From Saccostrea echinata (taxonomy: Eukaryota): 64,000 bases of DNA. The notes under the pieces were generated by a model. The model was given only the letters and a program-made list of their open reading frames with translations. It was not told where the DNA came from and did not search any database. This document shows positions 37,912 through 47,364 of the stretch, in pieces. The position numbers and the translations under genes are program-made. Positions within the stretch are counted from its first letter, which is position 1, and every line of letters starts with the position of its first letter. Where the stretch lies: assembly GCF_033153115.1 (NCBI RefSeq), contig NW_026889797.1, forward strand, positions 868,001 through 932,000, written 5' to 3'.

Positions 37912-39310
37912 CCGGCTGAGATGGGCAAACATGGTGTATTACGCACCTTCCCTTCGTTGCAAATTATGTGCACATATACAACCTTTCAATTTTTCGGCTT
38001 AGCAATTTACGGTAACTTTCTTTTTGCATACCATATCTTTTAAAATGACTCATTTTGATTGACCTTTAGCAGCTTAGTATCACTTACAAAATAAATTATT
38101 CCTTGCATTTTGCATCGCATTTATTATGCTTTATTAGTTTGTTCCCATACATTACACATATTATCAGAGAAGAATTCAAACTTGTAATACCCTTGGTTCA
38201 TACACTTACGAGGTTTAAGGACAATAACATGAACTTTTTACGCTTCGTACAGACTAGAATCTATTGCTAGAATAATTTTCAGAAAAAATAATAGGGACGC
38301 AATGAAACGTAGCATTTTTGATGTAATTGACGTCATAATCAAATGCGCACAAAACAAACGCTCGAATCGTCGAAATTGTGTACAGAAATTGATGTCAAAA
38401 GCTAACCTGCGACCTACATTTAACAGAAATATTTTGTGAAGCTATTATGTGTTCTTCTAATATGGATATTAATTGAAATAACATAGCAATTCTTTTTAGT
38501 GTAGAAATAAGTTAGGTCACCTCACTTGACAGCCATGCGATGAATGCATGCAATGTGTGCTATTTTATAGGTTGCAAACAAATTTCGATATCGCAACTGA
38601 TAGAACAAATGATGAATAAATAAATGTTAAATTATATTAACGTATCTTATATCTCGAAAGTTTTCCTGATTAAATACATTTGGCATTTTTTTAAGTTTGC
38701 GATTCCAAATTGGCATGTGCTCAAACACGTGCTTAAACAATTCTTTGTATTTTTTTTTTTAAATAAACAAACTGATCTGGTTTTCTTTTTACTGAATAAA
38801 ACAAATAAAATTAATAGTCATCATAATCAAATATTCCATGCAGAAATGAACGTCACACCACGCAATCTTTAAAAATAATAATTAAAAAAAAAATGCATAC
38901 GTTATAGCATAGCTTATCTGTTTATTAACTTGTTTGCAACAATAGGTATGTAGGATTTTGTTTAAATGGACCTTGAGATATATTGAGGATATTGATACGC
39001 AACATACCAAATACACAAACATTTAACAGACACAAGCAATGCAGGCATATAAATAAAGTTATATTCAAATTAGAGAATATCTTTGCTTTAGTTTCGAGAG
39101 AAAGAATTTTTTTTATAGTTTCCTTCTACCTAAATTGGTTATAGAAACGTCATTTTCAAAACAACTTCCTTAAAAAGAAGAGGAATAAATGTCACAGAGA
39201 TACGAGCATATGAATGATTATACTAAATTGGAAAAGAAATGATTTCTCACAAAGTATGAATTCTAAAGAAATTTTAAACTTTTCTTCAGAATTATTTTCA
39301 TTATCTTAAG

Positions 39311-39439
39311 GTTGTACTACTGGCTACTATGGATTTGACTGTTCTCTTCCCTGTCCTAAAAATTGTCGTTATTGTCATATAGAGACTGGAATGTGTTCCT
39401 GGTGTACACCAGGATATCAGGGATATCGGTGCAAAGTTG
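39311..39439 (+). CDS. Gene B EGF-like exon 1
   Basis: CTTGYYGFDCSLPCPKNCRYCHIETGMCSWCTPGYQGYRCKV, AG/GT bounded. Confidence 0.88.
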
Positions 39440-39746
39440 GTAAGAATCTAAATGAGAATCGTTTTATTCGAGCATGGAAAGGCAACGCATTTTTTCTTCT
39501 TTAGGGATTGAAACGAATCATTGCCTCAATGGTCATTTCCAATATTTTTACCTTTTACAAACAATATATATTGATATACTGTATGGTTATTGATCTAAGG
39601 CTATTTGAAAATAGAATACAGCATATGTATGCTTTGATGACAATTAGATATTACACTTTTGTCAATGCACGTACTTAAGGTAAGGATATATTTAATATTT
39701 TCTTTTTATCTCGAGAATTAAAAAAAGTTTTTATTTCTTTCAAAAG

Positions 39747-39884
39747 AGTGTGGTAGTGGCAAATACGGTCAGGACTGCGGAATTAGTTGTGGAGCTTGTC
39801 TGGGATATAAACAATGTCACCACATCAATGGGTCTTGTCTTGAAGGCTGTGACACTGGATATGAAGGGGTTCTTTGTAAAAGAG
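39747..39884 (+). CDS. Gene B EGF-like exon 2
   Basis: CGSGKYGQDCGISCGACLGYKQCHHINGSCLEGCDTGYEGVLCKR. Confidence 0.88.
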
Positions 39885-40998
39885 GTAACATGACTACTCT
39901 AAATATTGTTACAGTGCTGCTATCCCACAAGTTGACATGGGATGGGTTTGGATTGGATTCAGATTGAGGATTCACGATAAAAACATATAGTAGTTAATCC
40001 AATCCAATCCTATCCTATCCTTTATCCTACAGCCAATCAGATTCGAGAAAAGGTTGATTCATATTTCAGAATTAATTACAAAAACGGAATATGCTTTAAA
40101 ACGTTTACAAAAGAAATATTTATAAAATTACGATAGAAAATGAACATATTTTGTTTATTTTAACACAAATTAATAATAAACTTCGAGTGACATCGCGTGC
40201 GATTTAACCGTGAACGATCACCGGAAGAATTTTGCATGTAAACAATTAACAACGAAGAGTTCGGACATCAAGAGGTCTTATTTTCTTCAGCATGTTTGGA
40301 TGATTAAGCCAATTCCTACGTGTTTTAAAGTTCAATAACATGTAACTGTGTTAAATGTGCTCTGTTTGTCTGGGTAATTCTACACAAACCGCCAACGGCG
40401 GACTTGAGCAGATCGATATCGCATTTGTTTGGTGCAAGAACATGTAAGTATACTACACACTGTACATGTGTGCATGTTTATACATTTCCCCCTTTAAACA
40501 ATGTTATAATGACTTGAGCTATCAAAATTTTATTCTATTATAATATAGACAAAATCGGGTTGGAAAAATAGGTGGTGTGGGAAGGGGAGGGGGTTAAAAA
40601 ATTACAAATACTCTGTCATGATTCAATGTGTTCTAAAACAATAAGATGTATAATGCCTTTTTCAGTTTGTTATTACTATATTATTTCCCTACTGTGGTTT
40701 AAAAAATATTTTTTTATTTGAGTGCAATTATAATAAAATAAAGACAGAATCATTTCTTATGCTACATGTACTGTTTAAATTGTATTATAAGCCAACTCAG
40801 CACTTACATGTACATTGTATGTATGACCTATTCTGGGTTATGAATTATAAATTAATCATGCATTATTATTCATTGCAGAGAATGATACTTGGTTTTGCCT
40901 GCCCTCATCAAAATATTTTGTGAGGAAAAAAGGATTTTACATTTAAAAGGTAGGTATGATTATTAACATGTGTTTATGCATGGGTATCAATATAATAT

Positions 40999-41204
40999 TA
41001 GCATCTATTTGCTTACATACAAAATAGATGCCTTTATTTTACGAGAGAAGTATTTTGTTTGAGTCGGGCTCGGCCCGACTGAAGAAGTATATAAAGGCTC
41101 GGGTTTGTCCTTCACCTTCCTTTCTGCTGAACTTTTCAAAGGTAAAGACGTGTTGAAAGTGTTGTTAAAAAATTTAAGTAATTTTACGTTGTAAATTTCA
41201 AATA
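40999..41204 (+). repeat. Split direct repeat A1
   Basis: 206 bp; 2 mismatches seen against 46533-46738. Confidence 0.95.
41062..41095 (+). promoter_or_regulatory. Putative element promoter: palindrome followed by a TATA box
   Basis: agtcgggc-tcg-gcccgact, then tatataaa; repeated in A2. Confidence 0.55.
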
Positions 41205-41556
41205 TCTTATTTTTCTTTATTATTTTTAAATTCCCAACATATTTCAAGCAATATTCTCTAGGTTTAATTCATAAATACAGCGGATGACACTGGATTGTTA
41301 ATTTGCATGTGGCAGACGACACGTGCGTTATCTCTTAATCACGTACATAAGCAGTCATAAAAAAATTGTTTGGCAATTTAATTTATTTATTGCATCGTCG
41401 GCTGTCTCTGTATATAATTTAAAAGGAAATTGGATGGTATTGTTTTTAATTTTTTATGTATTATCAGACGCGCACGTTTCATGTACTCGTGTTATTTGTT
41501 CAGCATTAATTTATTCTATATTCTATTTACATGTTTCATAATTCATCAATGAAAAA

Positions 41557-42570
41557 ATGCCACCCAAGAAAAGGAGAGCCAACCAGAAAAAAGCCAGTGC
41601 TAGTACAAGCAGTGCACCTAGTCCAGCTGGTGTAGCCCCAATATTAGAAGAGGGCACAAGTGGAGAAAAGCATTTAGAGACTCAAGTTGATATGCACAGA
41701 CCTTCCAGTACCAAAAGAAAGAGATCAGAAACTGTTGTTTCATCACCAAACCCTGCTGTACCAGGTACATCTGCCCCCTTTGAATTGCCCAATTCGGTTG
41801 AATCAGTATATTCACATCTAGCAAGCATTGTCTCTAGTAACATTAGAACCAAAATAGTCAATTCTATTTATATTGATATTGCAGTGCTTCTAGATAACAC
41901 TTCACTTAGTGAGACAATGGAAAAGAAAATCTATTTTAACGATAAGGGGGAACTAATCACGAGGGAAAGTTCCCAAACTAAAGTTAAAATAACTTCAATA
42001 GATAAATGGACAGATGCATTTATCATTTATGCCAGTATTTACTCTGCATCCCACCCAGAGACGGTTCAAGATCTCTTTAAGTATTTGCATGATATTAGGC
42101 TCGGGGCTTCACGGGGTGGCAGTTCTATGGGCTGGAAGACATATGATGAGCAATTCAGGCTCCGACGAAGCTTAAACCCTGCTATATCTTGGGGCACTAT
42201 TGATTCCGAACTATGGTTAATGTACATGTCACCTGTAAGTTCACCTTCTGTGGTGGGAGGAACTAATTCTAGACAAACAGGCCATATGAAATGTTACAAT
42301 TTCAATTTTCAGGGTATTTGTAGTAGGGCTCAGTGCATTTATATGCACTGCTGTTTAAAATGCAGTGGGGCTCACCCACTCTCTACTTGTCCTGTAGGCA
42401 ATAATTACATGGCTCAAGCTAAACCAGCATATTCGTCAAATGTTCGAAACAGTTTAAGGTTGCCTCAGAGTCCTAACAACTTTTTTCGCTCTCGAATGCC
42501 CATCAACCCTCAATACACGCGACCCCTCAGACCACAAACAAATCTAGGAACTAGGAAAAACCCCAATTAA
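41557..42570 (+). CDS. gag: Ngaro ORF1, Gag-like protein
   Basis: 337 aa, ATG start, PPKKRR N-terminus, WKTYDEQFR motif, C-x8-C-x4-C-x3-H plus C-x2-C-x3-H-x4-C zinc fingers. Confidence 0.9.
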   Translation: MPPKKRRANQKKASASTSSAPSPAGVAPILEEGTSGEKHLETQVDMHRPSSTKRKRSETVVSSPNPAVPGTSAPFELPNSVESVYSHLASIVSSNIRTKIVNSIYIDIAVLLDNTSLSETMEKKIYFNDKGELITRESSQTKVKITSIDKWTDAFIIYASIYSASHPETVQDLFKYLHDIRLGASRGGSSMGWKTYDEQFRLRRSLNPAISWGTIDSELWLMYMSPVSSPSVVGGTNSRQTGHMKCYNFNFQGICSRAQCIYMHCCLKCSGAHPLSTCPVGNNYMAQAKPAYSSNVRNSLRLPQSPNNFFRSRMPINPQYTRPLRPQTNLGTRKNPN

Positions 42571-44155
42571 GATAGACAGACTTCAGGAGCATTTGAAAGA
42601 TTACCCTGATAAAAAGGTTGTAGTATTTTTAGAAGAAGGATTTACAAAAGGTTTTAAGATTTGCTATAAAGGTCTTAGAATCCATGTTTCATGTAAAAAT
42701 TTGTCATCTGCAAGAGAATACCATGATCAGCTTTTGGAAAAAATCAACAAAGAAATAAGCCTGGGTAGAATTTTGGGTCCTTTCATTGATTTACCAATAG
42801 CAAACCTTCATTTATCTCCAGTCGGTGTTGTCCCTAAATCTGATGGGGGATGGAGGATGATATCTCACCTCTCTTACCCCGAGTTAAGCGGTGTCAACTA
42901 TTTTATTGATCCTGAACTCTGCTCGGTACAGTATTCTTCATTTGATGGAGTCATAGACATGATTGCTAGGTTGGGAAAGGGGGCTCTATTAGGAAAAGTT
43001 GACATCAAAAGTGCATTTAGGTTGATACCTATTTACCCAGGAGATTTTGACTTGCTTGGTTTCTCATTAGATGGATTGTATTACATAGATAAATGTTTAC
43101 CTATGGGTTGTAGCATAAGCTGTAAAATATGGGAAACTTTTGCCACGTTTTTACATTGGTTGACAGGGTACAAATCTGGGCTTAAAACCTTGGATCATTA
43201 TCTAGATGATTTTATTTTTGCGGGGAGAAAAGAAACTCAGGAATGTGCTCTTCTCATGTCTCAATTTATATCGATAGCTTTCGACATTGGGGTTCCATTA
43301 GCTGATGAAAAAACCACAGGGCCTACCACAAGGTTAACATATCTGGGTTTTGTGATTGATACAGTAGAAATGATCATTAAAATACCCCAAGATAAAGTTG
43401 ATGCTCTACTACAAACTATTAAAGTTTTTCTTGATAGAAAAAAAGTGACTCTTAAGGAATTGCAATCATTAGTGGGAACTCTTAATTTCTTTTGTAAAGC
43501 GATTAGATCTAGTAGGGCTTTTATTCGCAGATTTTATGATGCAATGTCTGGGTGTCTTAAGTCATTCCACCACATTAGATTAAATTTAGACATGAAAAGT
43601 GACCTTAGAATTTGGGAGATTTTCCTAAAGCACTTTAATGGGGTAGCATATTTCTCCGATACGATTTGGCAGGATTCTAATATTTTAGAGTTTTATACTG
43701 ATAGTGCTGGTTCTAATGCTTTAGGATGTGGGGCTTATTTTCAGGGTAGTTGGTTTTTTCTTCCTTGGCCAAAACATTGGGAGAATCAGGAAATCATGAA
43801 GGATATTACATTTCTTGAGTTAATTCCAGTAGTGATAGCAATTGAAATTTGGGGGAATTTGTTAGTTAGGAAAAAAGTCTTATTTCATATTGACAATATA
43901 GCTTTAGTTAGTGTAATCAATAAGCAAACCTCTAAATCCAAGAGAATTATGGAGCTTGTTCGACATTTTGTGCTCAAACTTATGTTAAATAATGTTGTGT
44001 TTAAAGCTAAACATATTTCAAGTATTGATAATAACATTGCGGACTCTATTTCTCGGAAACAGTGGCAGAGGTTCAAGGAATTGGCACCATCAGCCAAGCC
44101 AAACCCAGAAGTCCCACCAAGGGAGTTAGTGAACATGATATACAATTTGAAATAG
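42548..44155 (+). CDS. pol: Ngaro ORF2, reverse transcriptase plus RNase H
   Basis: KVDIKSAFR, LPMG and YLDD RT motifs; RNase H residues in FYTDSAG, FLEL, HIDN and IADSISR; frame is open from 42548 with no AUG before the RT core. Confidence 0.95.
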   Translation, partial: ELGKTPIKIDRLQEHLKDYPDKKVVVFLEEGFTKGFKICYKGLRIHVSCKNLSSAREYHDQLLEKINKEISLGRILGPFIDLPIANLHLSPVGVVPKSDGGWRMISHLSYPELSGVNYFIDPELCSVQYSSFDGVIDMIARLGKGALLGKVDIKSAFRLIPIYPGDFDLLGFSLDGLYYIDKCLPMGCSISCKIWETFATFLHWLTGYKSGLKTLDHYLDDFIFAGRKETQECALLMSQFISIAFDIGVPLADEKTTGPTTRLTYLGFVIDTVEMIIKIPQDKVDALLQTIKVFLDRKKVTLKELQSLVGTLNFFCKAIRSSRAFIRRFYDAMSGCLKSFHHIRLNLDMKSDLRIWEIFLKHFNGVAYFSDTIWQDSNILEFYTDSAGSNALGCGAYFQGSWFFLPWPKHWENQEIMKDITFLELIPVVIAIEIWGNLLVRKKVLFHIDNIALVSVINKQTSKSKRIMELVRHFVLKLMLNNVVFKAKHISSIDNNIADSISRKQWQRFKELAPSAKPNPEVPPRELVNMIYNLK

Positions 44156-45182
44156 ACCGGTTACTTCAGGCATCAATTTCTAAGAACACCAAGTTGTCAC
44201 ATCAGACAGGACTAGCATCTTTTCAAAAATTCAGGTCAACTTTTGACTTGGACGACAACTGGCCACCATTAACAAGTCATCTGATCCAATACATTGCTTA
44301 TTTGTCACGCTTAGGATACTCATTTTCAACAGCAAGGTCTTATGTATCAGCAATAAGCTTTAACTGCAAAATTCAAAATTAACAAGTCATCTGATCCAAT
44401 ACATTGCTTATTTGTCACGCTTAGGATACTCATTTTCAACAGCAAGGTCTTATGTATCAGCAATAAGCTTTAACTGCAAAATTCAAAATTTTGATGATGT
44501 TACTAGGAATTTCATGGTTACAAAACTCTTGGAAGGGATGAGGAGACTAAACAAACCAGCTGATTCTAGACTTCCTATTACCCCCAATTTGCTCAATAAA
44601 ATATTACATATGTTGCATTCAGTGTGTTTCAATAGATATGAGACTTTGCTTTTTAAGGCAGCTTATTCATTGGCTTTCTTTGCATTTCTTAGAGTTGGAG
44701 AAATTTGTTTATCTGCAGGCAATGACAGTAACTCAATTTTGCAAGCCTCAGATATTGAATTTGATCAAGATCAAGCAAATATGTTATTAGTCATTAAACA
44801 ATCTAAAACTGATCAGACAGGCAAGGGTATTACAATATGTATTGAAGAAGTGGGTGGCAGTATTTGTCCAGTCAAATGCTTGAGGGAGTTTCTGTCTATA
44901 AGACCCAAAGTTAAGGGAGCATTATTTTGTCATTTTGGAGGTGAACCACTAACTAGATCCCAGTTTTCATCGGTTTTGGGCAAGGTGTTGAAGGTCTGTA
45001 AAGTTGGGGGCAATTACAAATCTCATTCCTTTCGCATAGGGGCAGCCACAGCAGCATTTGAATTGGGTTGTTCAGAAGATTCAATAATGGAGGCAGGTCG
45101 TTGGAAATCTAAGGTTTACAAATCTTACATTAGGTCTCCATTGGCAGGTTTAAGAAAAAATAGAATTTTTGATGATATCTAG
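44062..45182 (+). pseudogene. Ngaro ORF3, tyrosine recombinase, split by a 110-bp tandem duplication
   Basis: Catalytic set LRVGE, SKTDQ, HSFR, GRW, YKSY in ORF 44412-45182; N-terminal part in ORF 44062-44382; removing one repeat copy gives a single 336-aa frame. Confidence 0.92.
44268..44490 (+). repeat. Perfect 110-bp tandem duplication
   Basis: aacaagtcatctgatcc starts at both 44271 and 44381; ATT microhomology at the junction. Confidence 0.95.
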
Positions 45183-45364
45183 CTCTAGGTTTGGGTTGTT
45201 CACATGCTAGTACCATAGGTATCATGAAGTAAAAAATAAAAAGCTGTTCACAATAAATTGCACTTGCATTAGTTATTATACAATTGTCACTTAAATTGTT
45301 TGTTAGAACTTATTAATTGTCAGTCTAGTTCTTTATTTAGACTTTACAAGTTTTTTCAGCCCCC

Positions 45365-45964
45365 TTGCAAGTATGGTGTGTTGGTTCCTCCATTATAAAA
45401 AGAGCATTCTTGGAAGCCTTTAAAAGTCCCTCGGGGGTCAACTTAGCCTTAGAAAGAGTCGGACTAAATTTATGGTGGCAAGGCTACTCTGGACTAAAAT
45501 TCATTGAGTTAAAGAAAAAACTTTTGTACTTGAAGAATCTTGAGAATGAGCCTAACTTTATTCTTCTACATTGTGGCGGCAATGACATTGGTACCAAAGC
45601 ATATTCTTTATTTGAACTTATAAAAAAATTCAAGACAGATTTGGCTGAAATTAAGGGTCACTTTCCCCAGGCCATCCTGATATGGTCTCAAATCCTTCCC
45701 CGTATTCAATGGAGGTATTCCGAAGATTTAGTGACCATGGAAAACTATAGAAACCGTCTCAATAGGGCAGTAGCCAAATACATATTGGAACAGGGGGGCT
45801 GTTACCTGAAACATCCAGATTTGATGAAAGATATCGCCAAGTTTTTGCTACCTGATGGTGTACATTTATCAGAATTAGGAAACTCAATTTTTCTAATACA
45901 GTTCAAGGAGGTCTTGAATACTTTGCCCAAAAAAGGGGTTGCGTGTATCCAGACAAGTCTGTAA
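45365..45964 (+). CDS. Ngaro ORF4, SGNH/GDSL hydrolase
   Basis: Block I VGSSI, block II GYSG, block III GGND, block V DGVH; no AUG ahead of the catalytic blocks. Confidence 0.9.
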   Translation: MQVWCVGSSIIKRAFLEAFKSPSGVNLALERVGLNLWWQGYSGLKFIELKKKLLYLKNLENEPNFILLHCGGNDIGTKAYSLFELIKKFKTDLAEIKGHFPQAILIWSQILPRIQWRYSEDLVTMENYRNRLNRAVAKYILEQGGCYLKHPDLMKDIAKFLLPDGVHLSELGNSIFLIQFKEVLNTLPKKGVACIQTSL

Positions 45965-46077
45965 GTACCTAGAAAGAGTTGGGGGGACCTTGGGCAGTAT
46001 TGGGCGTGGAACAGTTGACTTGTGGCTTTCCCCATGTGTGGGGTGACTGCAAACTGTGCCAGTATGCAGCCATGTGG

Positions 46078-46532
46078 CATCTGCGCACACCAAGCCAACT
46101 GTTGACAATATTTGTGTGAAACTTGTACTATACTCAACTGGACTGGGTTGATGTGTGAACCACAGTTAAGTGTAGTATTATTTGACAGTGATATTAACTG
46201 TGAACTAGAAAAATGCATATTTGAGTTTGAGATTTGAAATTTTGAGATATTTGATATTTGAACTACTGTGAGTTTGAAATTTAATGTTTGATATGTGCAG
46301 TTTGATATTTGAACTTTGACATTTGAACTTTGAACTTTGTTTGATGTGTGCTGACCCTCCGCGGTAAACCCGGGACGGTTAGTGTGTACACATGTTGCTA
46401 TGATTTGATGGGATTGCCCTATTGAAATGGCATCCCATATTGTTTGTGATTTATTGTGCCACGACCAATACTCGCCATAAATTAAACATAAAACTAACAT
46501 TTGGTGTTGTATTCTTATCTCTGTATAAATAA
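46078..46532 (+). repeat. Split direct repeat B1
   Basis: 455 bp; no difference seen against 46910-47364; contains ATTAAA near its end. Confidence 0.95.
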
Positions 46533-46738
46533 TAGCATCTATTTGCTTACATACAAAATAGATGCCTTTATTTTACGAGAGTAGTATTTTGTTTGAGTCG
46601 GGCTCGGCCCGACTGAAGAAGTATATAAAGGCTCGGGTTTGTCCTTCACCTTCCTTTCTGCTGAACTTTTCAAAGGTAAAGACGTGTTGAAAGTGTTGTT
46701 AAAAAATTTAAGTAATTTTGCGTTGTAAATTTCAAATA
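46533..46738 (+). repeat. Split direct repeat A2
   Basis: Copy of A1 directly abutting B1. Confidence 0.95.
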
Positions 46739-46909
46739 CCCTCCCTCCCTCCACGTCAGATATGAAGTTGTATGTTAATTTAAAAAAGGAATTTCTGGTG
46801 CTTGGGTTTTTTCTCCTCTTCTTTTTCAGGTTTTGGGGCATCAGTTCCCTTAGGATTTAGTTGGATACATGCATAAGGAATCGTCGTGGCGCTATCCAGG
46901 ATTGATGAA

Positions 46910-47364
46910 CATCTGCGCACACCAAGCCAACTGTTGACAATATTTGTGTGAAACTTGTACTATACTCAACTGGACTGGGTTGATGTGTGAACCACAGTTA
47001 AGTGTAGTATTATTTGACAGTGATATTAACTGTGAACTAGAAAAATGCATATTTGAGTTTGAGATTTGAAATTTTGAGATATTTGATATTTGAACTACTG
47101 TGAGTTTGAAATTTAATGTTTGATATGTGCAGTTTGATATTTGAACTTTGACATTTGAACTTTGAACTTTGTTTGATGTGTGCTGACCCTCCGCGGTAAA
47201 CCCGGGACGGTTAGTGTGTACACATGTTGCTATGATTTGATGGGATTGCCCTATTGAAATGGCATCCCATATTGTTTGTGATTTATTGTGCCACGACCAA
47301 TACTCGCCATAAATTAAACATAAAACTAACATTTGGTGTTGTATTCTTATCTCTGTATAAATAA
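46910..47364 (+). repeat. Split direct repeat B2
   Basis: Copy of B1, offset 832 bp. Confidence 0.95.

Follow-up and report, generated by a model that had tools for sequence, protein, structure and literature searches.

Hydrolase-bearing retrotransposons of the Ngaro type have been described from Xenopus, where DIRS-53_XT and DIRS-54_XT carry an SGNH hydrolase open reading frame (ORF) that is said to have 'no proven function', and neither 'splic' nor 'intron' occurs in the part of that source available to us (PMC9210276). Hydrolase function is likewise termed unknown in the accessible part of PMC6681497. Here we describe a complete Ngaro-type retrotransposon at 40994-47359 in a 64,000-nt stretch of the Saccostrea echinata genome (contig NW_026889797.1, positions 868,001 to 932,000; hereafter the window, numbered from its first letter), and present evidence that its start-codon-less SGNH esterase is very probably made from a spliced RNA joining the first 69 gag codons to the esterase exon. 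As far as the covered text of PMC9210276 goes, the Xenopus elements share its A1-gag-RT/RH-YR-SGNH-B1-A2-B2 layout (A and B, direct repeats; RT/RH, reverse transcriptase/RNase H; YR, tyrosine recombinase), its four ORFs and its lack of a methylase, whereas the hydrolase is there a separate ORF and here the second exon of a putative Gag-leader fusion.

Further systems bear comparison. In murine leukaemia virus (MLV) the SD' donor inside gag is joined downstream to give the P50/P60 accessory proteins with a Gag N-terminus, P50 consisting of matrix, p12, 110 aa of capsid and the integrase end, with reuse of the env acceptor (PMC10496198). The gag-internal donor and a product headed by the Gag N-terminus recur in our element, but here the borrowed portion is only a short disordered leader, it would be joined to an AUG-less exon dedicated to an enzyme, and the element is non-retroviral. 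The bdelloid Vesta long terminal repeat (LTR) elements possess a GDSL esterase as ORF3, such ORF3s typically arising from spliced messages (PMC5408684); the likeness is that of an esterase as a 3' extra ORF of a Gag/RT element, whereas the Vesta ORF3s are separate units for which the covered text mentions no Gag N-terminus fusion, in elements with a DDE integrase and LTRs (PMC5408684). Finally, the ORF1 protein of ZfL2-1, a non-LTR retrotransposon, has an active SGNH domain that binds phospholipids and not RNA, RNA binding being proposed for an arginine-rich peptide (PMC3905857). An SGNH domain behind a basic peptide is common to both (PMC3905857), although in ZfL2-1 one unspliced ORF with a coiled coil replaces Gag, whereas here the esterase stands beside Gag and would borrow its leader by splicing.

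An earlier examination of this stretch from its letters alone (the sequence-only reading) had likened such an RNA to retroviral env expression. Env-type expression involves a non-coding leader exon and an ORF with an AUG, a signal peptide and a transmembrane segment of its own, whereas here the first exon is coding, the esterase is AUG-less and its model has no transmembrane helix; the closer match is the gag-internal donor of MLV SD'/P50. Retroviruses and LTR elements are known to make spliced subgenomic RNAs. A Gag-leader splice in Ngaro was not found in the Ngaro, DIRS and esterase literature covered, which did not extend to the founding reviews, Repbase reports and supplements, nor by term look-up in the available parts of PMC9210276, PMC7192593, PMC8547959, PMC6681497, PMC3783388 and PMC10294476. 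Within the literature covered, Gag-leader/esterase splicing in Ngaro thus appears not to have been reported previously, the splicing principle itself being known from MLV and LTR elements.

A probable leader-esterase splice: one contig and conserved sites

The esterase frame extends from stop to stop over 207 codons (45341-45964), and its first ATG, at 45737, lies behind catalytic blocks I-III. The sequence-only reading had noticed this AUG-less state, and proposed that a donor (CAG/GTACAT, 41764/41765), 208 nt on from the Gag ATG at 41557 (69 codons + 1), and an acceptor (ttttttcAG/CC, 45359/45360), both in phase 1, yield a subgenomic Gag-leader/hydrolase mRNA. Coordinates and phases proved correct, and the proposed mRNA is now supported by one contig and by conservation of the sites. 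The features involved are as follows:

41557..42570, + strand: gag ORF, 337 aa, read when the donor is unused
41557..41764, + strand: shared leader sequence (coding) of 69 codons + 1 nt, low-complexity and with a basic start
41765..41770, + strand: phase-1 splice donor inside gag (contig joint, GT..AG)
45358..45359, + strand: phase-1 esterase acceptor (site score, contig joint, conservation)
45360..45964, + strand: SGNH/GDSL esterase exon with no start codon of its own (frame, homology, contig)

Assembled contigs were examined from six runs (X1-X6), whose RNA type is a guess and each of which holds a small share of the stretch; among runs recorded as RNA, none was found to contain it. One X4 contig (record 27, 313 nt) passes from 41761 directly to 45357, three letters at the joint being assignable to either part; when the cut is set at +3, the joint skips 41765..45359 (3595 nt, GT..AG) and equals the predicted junction to the base. 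Its 93 nt of gag agree with the window throughout, and its 220 nt of esterase show 5 differences; the contig therefore stems from a sister copy or allele, so that the splice is shown for the family and not for this insertion. In X1 and X2 a contig ceases to match at 41764, and in X3 one does so at 41765. In a second comparison (X2, X4, X5 and X6 at 80%) the X4 contig reappeared among the pieces, and no further run had the join among the joints listed.

No joined leader-esterase copy was found in the genome assembly (G000). The leader DNA occurs there 4 times, always running on into gag, and all 7 close esterase copies retain the upstream intron/spacer sequence, from which it follows that the assembly holds no processed copy. 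As a control for RNA, the host exons were weak: no contig covered 38570-39139, intronic contigs exist, and a host GT..AG joint (40443 to 40879) in X4 and X5 has short sides of only 30 and 23 letters.

Contigs of X2 and X3 bear further on the donor. An X2 contig of 1037 nt (window 41515-41764) leaves the element exactly at this site, its other 781 nt being unplaced in 38000-46520 at 80%, and an X3 contig has 27 unplaced letters after 41765. It seems that the donor is used with a further partner besides the esterase exon. Splicing of the A1 donor (41141) to the esterase was discarded as a way to make the protein, since it would bring in no AUG and such a joint was absent from the contigs examined.

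The splice sites of the window copy taken alone are unremarkable. According to scoring tables of approximate splice-site frequencies, the donor ranks 7 of 232 GT sites in the element and 3 of 48 in gag, where it is the highest-scoring phase-1 GT, and the acceptor (score 1.7) ties with a phase-0 AG at 45341, 19 nt upstream. What lifts these sites above chance is that one contig joins both points exactly and that they are conserved across families.

This conservation was assessed in 61 loci, comprising 20 from a DNA search, 40 hand-picked across the identity range of 150 scored protein matches, and the window. G000 holds an unusually rich set of esterase-bearing Ngaro elements, with at least 150 scored esterase matches (601 candidates) in at least 20 families at 32-100% identity. 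For the acceptor, the highest-scoring AG of the 60 nt that precede block I was taken without regard to phase, in the 53 loci where block I was found (8 dropped). Phase 1 was the outcome in 44 of the 53 copies, and in 17 of the 20 families for the majority of their copies, the site generally lying 8-29 nt ahead of the Trp codon; control intervals upstream gave 21/53 and 14/53, and RT gave 404/761 (binomial p by family 0.003 versus the harshest of these nulls). Block I has no in-frame Met before it in 43/53 copies, and most copies have an in-frame stop 7-23 codons before it; all 7 members of the window family belong to the 43, so that none of these siblings has the AUG directly upstream that would have spoken against the fusion. 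For the donor, the 150 nt that lead up to the Gag core were scanned for their best GT in the 45 loci where the core start could be located; it was in phase 1 in 38 of these and in 17 of 22 groups (1 tie, 4 not), against nulls of 26/80 and 144/299 (p 0.005). The groups are not fully independent, and two singleton donor groups are probably members of other families. Database proteins agree with several of these blind calls: P0317 fits both predicted sites for the L039 family, and P0002 fits the predicted donor for L033 and L072. P0099 disagrees with the donor call for L038, placing the true site just beyond the interval scanned. Phase and position of both sites are thus kept across about 20 families of the genome, as well as in database proteins of other molluscs.

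The esterase, its probable leader and database proteins

By its catalytic residues and modelled fold the ORF is an SGNH/GDSL hydrolase with predicted esterase activity. Pfam GDSL/SGNH matches (E 7.8e-7 and 2.4e-4) fall just below the curated cut-offs; an alignment of 18 homologues shows the catalytic Ser (block I), Gly (II), Asn (III) and Asp-x-x-His (V) to be invariant or nearly so; a structure model and fold search of the homologue P0002 gave an SGNH, flavodoxin-like fold; and the closest solved relative by sequence is the ZfL2-1 esterase (PDB 4C1B, E 7e-11). Two AATAAA motifs lie between the recombinase stop and the esterase acceptor, at 45235 and 45252, and polyadenylation there could compete with use of the esterase exon.

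The leader has 12 K/R in 69 aa, and 5-9 K/R fall within the first 20 leader residues in 13 of 16 printed loci, two of the other three appearing 5'-truncated. Disorder is predicted for it from the P0002 model, in which pLDDT is ~45-50 over residues 1-70 versus >90 in the domain, and no coiled coil was predicted in the leader. The conserved core of Gag starts only at about residue 75 and is followed by a C-terminal Cys/His finger; the gag ORF had no Pfam match, and the window Gag is 43% identical to P0068.

Searches of protein databases returned 67 proteins with the esterase query and 5387 with a profile, of which 150 were listed. Block I is preceded by 35 or more residues in 65 of the proteins examined; 40 of these, when every cluster member is counted, begin with basic residues and carry a leader that is not hydrophobic. 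Five leader-esterase proteins match a Gag N-terminus at 96-100% and diverge from it where Gag has Gly:

P0002/P0068: Saccostrea cucullata RefSeq
P0098/P0117: Argopecten irradians isoforms X2/X1
P0099/P0169: C. virginica model versus unnamed Gag
P0226/P0158: C. angulata model versus unnamed Gag
P0020/P0206: ENA

The junction residue of the five esterase forms is always E, G, D, G or A, that is, a G-first codon, as a phase-1 G/GT donor demands. The unspliced reading through the intron is also on record for the P0020 family (P0096), and two Logan ORFs (P0374 and P0376) contain the whole 269-aa form on ~1.3 kb contigs. In amphibians, annotated long low-complexity leaders precede the same esterase in Xenopus laevis, Ascaphus, Ranitomeya and Bombina. 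The Xenopus leader is clearly alike to X. tropicalis Gag P0218 only over about its first 20 residues (E 0.011 composition-corrected, 5e-19 uncorrected), which makes the amphibian leader-Gag link suggestive only. Leader-only short isoforms (P0078, P0379, P0380; 99-121 aa) occur in leader-esterase clusters from Ostrea and Ruditapes and may point to another short terminal exon. A metagenome scan gave 2 weak loci (33% identity), which were not used.

Taken as a mechanism, the spliceosome would make a subgenomic leader-esterase RNA that skips the Gag core, RT and recombinase, while unspliced RNA would provide Gag and the genome. The leader is predicted to serve as a tag, for RNA binding or for the nucleus, by which the esterase, and perhaps the recombinase, would be brought to the ribonucleoprotein of the element. 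We tentatively regard such a tie, leading to membrane engagement, as its most likely role, by analogy with the ZfL2-1 esterase relative, which is proposed to reach RNA via its arginine-rich peptide; plain nuclear import and the mere supply of a start codon are alternatives.

Alternatives and a probable route to the recombinase

Several observations weigh against the leader-esterase splice and have to be set beside the evidence above. Its support lies at the level of sequence and contigs, the join being present in 1 contig of 1 of the 6 runs, and in contigs rather than raw reads from a run of guessed type. Unspliced contigs are present too, over the acceptor in X2 (depth 9.5) and over the donor in X5, as is expected if spliced and unspliced RNAs coexist. 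In the window copy the phase-blind scorer chose the phase-0 AG and not 45359/45360, and the blind picks also went wrong for the L072 acceptor and the L038 donor; the sister copy L016 has a weakened donor; and kinship among families means that the p-values overstate independence. An in-frame Met lies 10-45 codons upstream in 10/53 copies (6/20 families), some database models start at an upstream Met (P0010, P0013, P0014), and the RefSeq and ENA records are predicted gene models. Lastly, no joined contig with a leader-recombinase junction was found in the runs examined.

Could the esterase be made without this splice, from a short transcript of its own, an upstream AUG, a non-AUG start or recombinase read-through, with the junction an incidental cryptic splice? 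An unspliced X2 contig that spans 45054-46376, the upstream Met of 6/20 families that some gene models use, and the two AATAAA motifs, which could end upstream RNAs, are in keeping with such a route. We nevertheless consider it improbable, given that 43/53 copies (and all of the window family) have no such Met and mostly a stop 7-23 codons before block I, that relatives of 2 of the 6 Met-bearing families have spliced protein records (P0317, P0099), and that incidental splicing leaves unexplained why the phase of both sites is conserved over families 35-60% identical. It is very improbable that the X4 contig instead derives from DNA of an internally deleted copy (possibly reverse-transcribed spliced RNA) or from template switching at the 3-nt CAG microhomology. 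The RNA status of X4 is a guess, its contigs also fall on intronic host sequence (40262-40719), and the absence of a joined form from DNA is assembly-based; yet the breakpoints are the predicted GT..AG to the base, G000 has no such copy, and the 48 Mb of X4 contigs (longest 9.4 kb) against a 923-Mb genome look transcriptome-like, while precise intron loss would itself imply splicing.

The remaining frames of the element, and a site by which one of them might be reached, are these:

42548..44155, + strand: RT/RNase H frame, +1 to gag and overlapping it, no ATG at its start; RVT_1 E 9.9e-12
44061..44062, + strand: candidate phase-1 recombinase acceptor inside the RNase H D-x-x-S-R-x-Q-W motif
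44063..45182, + strand: tyrosine recombinase; Phage_int_SAM_1 E 1.8e-5, Phage_integrase E 6.2e-7

The recombinase is mostly AUG-less as well, no Met being present in the open frame before its core in 42/53 copies. The RNase H motif was located in 44 copies (9 dropped), in which its Gln position is encoded by CAG in 41 and by AAG, CAA and CTG in 1 each, whereas Gln is CAG at only 221/584 other RT positions (38%; 65/147 before T). The AG inside this motif is in phase 1 for the recombinase in 42 of the 44 copies; from there the 39-40 codons to the recombinase core are stop-free in 40/42 (1.7% expected per copy from the stop rate of the frame), and a stop lies 1-19 codons upstream of the AG in 42/42. 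In the window the site is 44062/44063, and an X2 contig begins at 44060, which is where spliced and unspliced paths would merge; this post hoc coincidence is weak. A 60-nt scan at the recombinase core found no phase preference (26/14/13 of 53), the candidate site lying 116-122 nt upstream.

It is likely, judging from these sequence patterns, that the gag donor is also spliced to the phase-1 AG in RNase H to give a leader-recombinase, in which case one basic, disordered leader would head three proteins. The other view, that the recombinase is reached by ribosomal frameshifting from RT or from a GTG start at 44062-44064, we hold to be rather unlikely, even though the missing leader-recombinase contig is in its favour, overlapping ORFs are usual in the group (the covered part of PMC3783388), and the site in most copies reads GTG in the recombinase frame, flanked by a purine such as A at -3 and by G at +4. 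Against a GTG start, TTT or TTC follows the site in three copies, so that no GTG is left there, and two of these copies keep the AG; against frameshifting, a -1 slippery heptamer is present in 1/21 representative overlaps. One family preserves the AG via a Lys codon, and a frameshift has no need of it. For RT we rejected a splice from the shared donor, the acceptor phase in the open overlap being inconsistent (9 phase 0, 5 phase 1, 5 phase 2 of 19), and no second donor for RT is conserved in gag; a phase-1 count of 29/44 near the RT start was set aside as probably reflecting Arg codons of the overlapping gag frame. With no consistent RT site, a +1 frameshift or an unrecognised splice are possible routes.

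The element, its copies and wider meaning

The remaining features of the element are listed below.

40994-47359, + strand: Ngaro-type retrotransposon, complete (split direct repeats and four ORFs)
40994..41204, + strand: terminal repeat A1, 211 nt, 3 differences versus A2
41088-41095, + strand: TATA element in A1, TATATAAA, read from the sequence
41141/41142, + strand: donor-like site in A1, score rank 2 of 232 GT sites of the element
46078..46527, + strand: repeat B1, 450 nt, 0 differences versus B2
46528..46738, + strand: repeat A2, copy of A1
46910..47359, + strand: repeat B2, copy of B1 and 3' end of the element

The order of a gag-like ORF (Gag by homology and Cys/His finger), RT/RNase H and tyrosine recombinase (both by Pfam) is a Ngaro-like arrangement, and the four ORFs gave no Pfam match to a DNA methyltransferase domain (a DIRS/PAT trait). 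The element is classed as Ngaro-like, an assignment based on its repeats, the SGNH ORF and the absence of a methylase. For the donor-like site of repeat A (41142, with its A2 counterpart near 46676), a possible partner is an acceptor-like site at 46828-46830 in the A2-B2 spacer, the strongest scored (10.7), and a small spliced RNA from A2 (near 46676 to 46828-46830) is possible. Contigs 20-300x deeper than the coding region match only parts of A/B (41017-41150, 45982-46477; ~85-93%) and show B-to-A joints, which suggests a far more abundant related RNA, perhaps from a non-autonomous derivative or another family.

The element lies within an intron of a host gene (24284-52586), in the same orientation and ~45 nt behind a donor-like site at 40950. 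This gene, which we take to be MEGF/scavenger-receptor-like, has F5/8-type-C-like and many EGF-like exons and a probable transmembrane segment.

The window copy itself is damaged. A 110-nt tandem duplication at 44268-44487 shifts the recombinase frame; the RT frame has a stop at 42545-42547, in the gag overlap, that sister copies do not have; and a frameshift near 45895, past the catalytic Asp/His, as judged against homologues and two run contigs, puts the final ~20 codons of the esterase in a different frame from that of homologues. A 99.7% identical copy (L013, G000:C58) carries the same 110-nt duplication, so that either the damaged version was copied or L013 is an allelic assembly duplicate. 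A degenerate relative (L019, G000:C54) has A1 only ~650 nt before the esterase region and no gag, RT or recombinase; it retains the pre-acceptor sequence and is by this token an internal deletion rather than a processed copy.

These findings indicate that the real product of the fourth ORF would be a leader-esterase and not the bare ORF, and they bear on how Ngaro elements express ORFs that overlap and have no AUG, with a probable route to the recombinase. They also suggest that two unrelated retroelement classes, Ngaro and that of ZfL2-1, have reached a layout of basic peptide plus membrane-binding esterase. Proteins annotated as 'SRRM2-like' (Xenopus laevis), 'serine/arginine-rich splicing factor 4' (Ranitomeya) and 'AP2-associated kinase 1-like' (Ostrea) are likely transposon products. 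More broadly, we lean slightly towards the view that esterase-bearing Ngaro elements from molluscs to frogs use splicing in the manner of complex retroviruses, whereby one basic leader would head unspliced Gag, the recombinase (through an acceptor within the RNase H code) and the esterase as a common tag for their assembly, either in the nucleus or on the RNA of the element, and many RefSeq genes that are 'uncharacterised' or misnamed would be their products.

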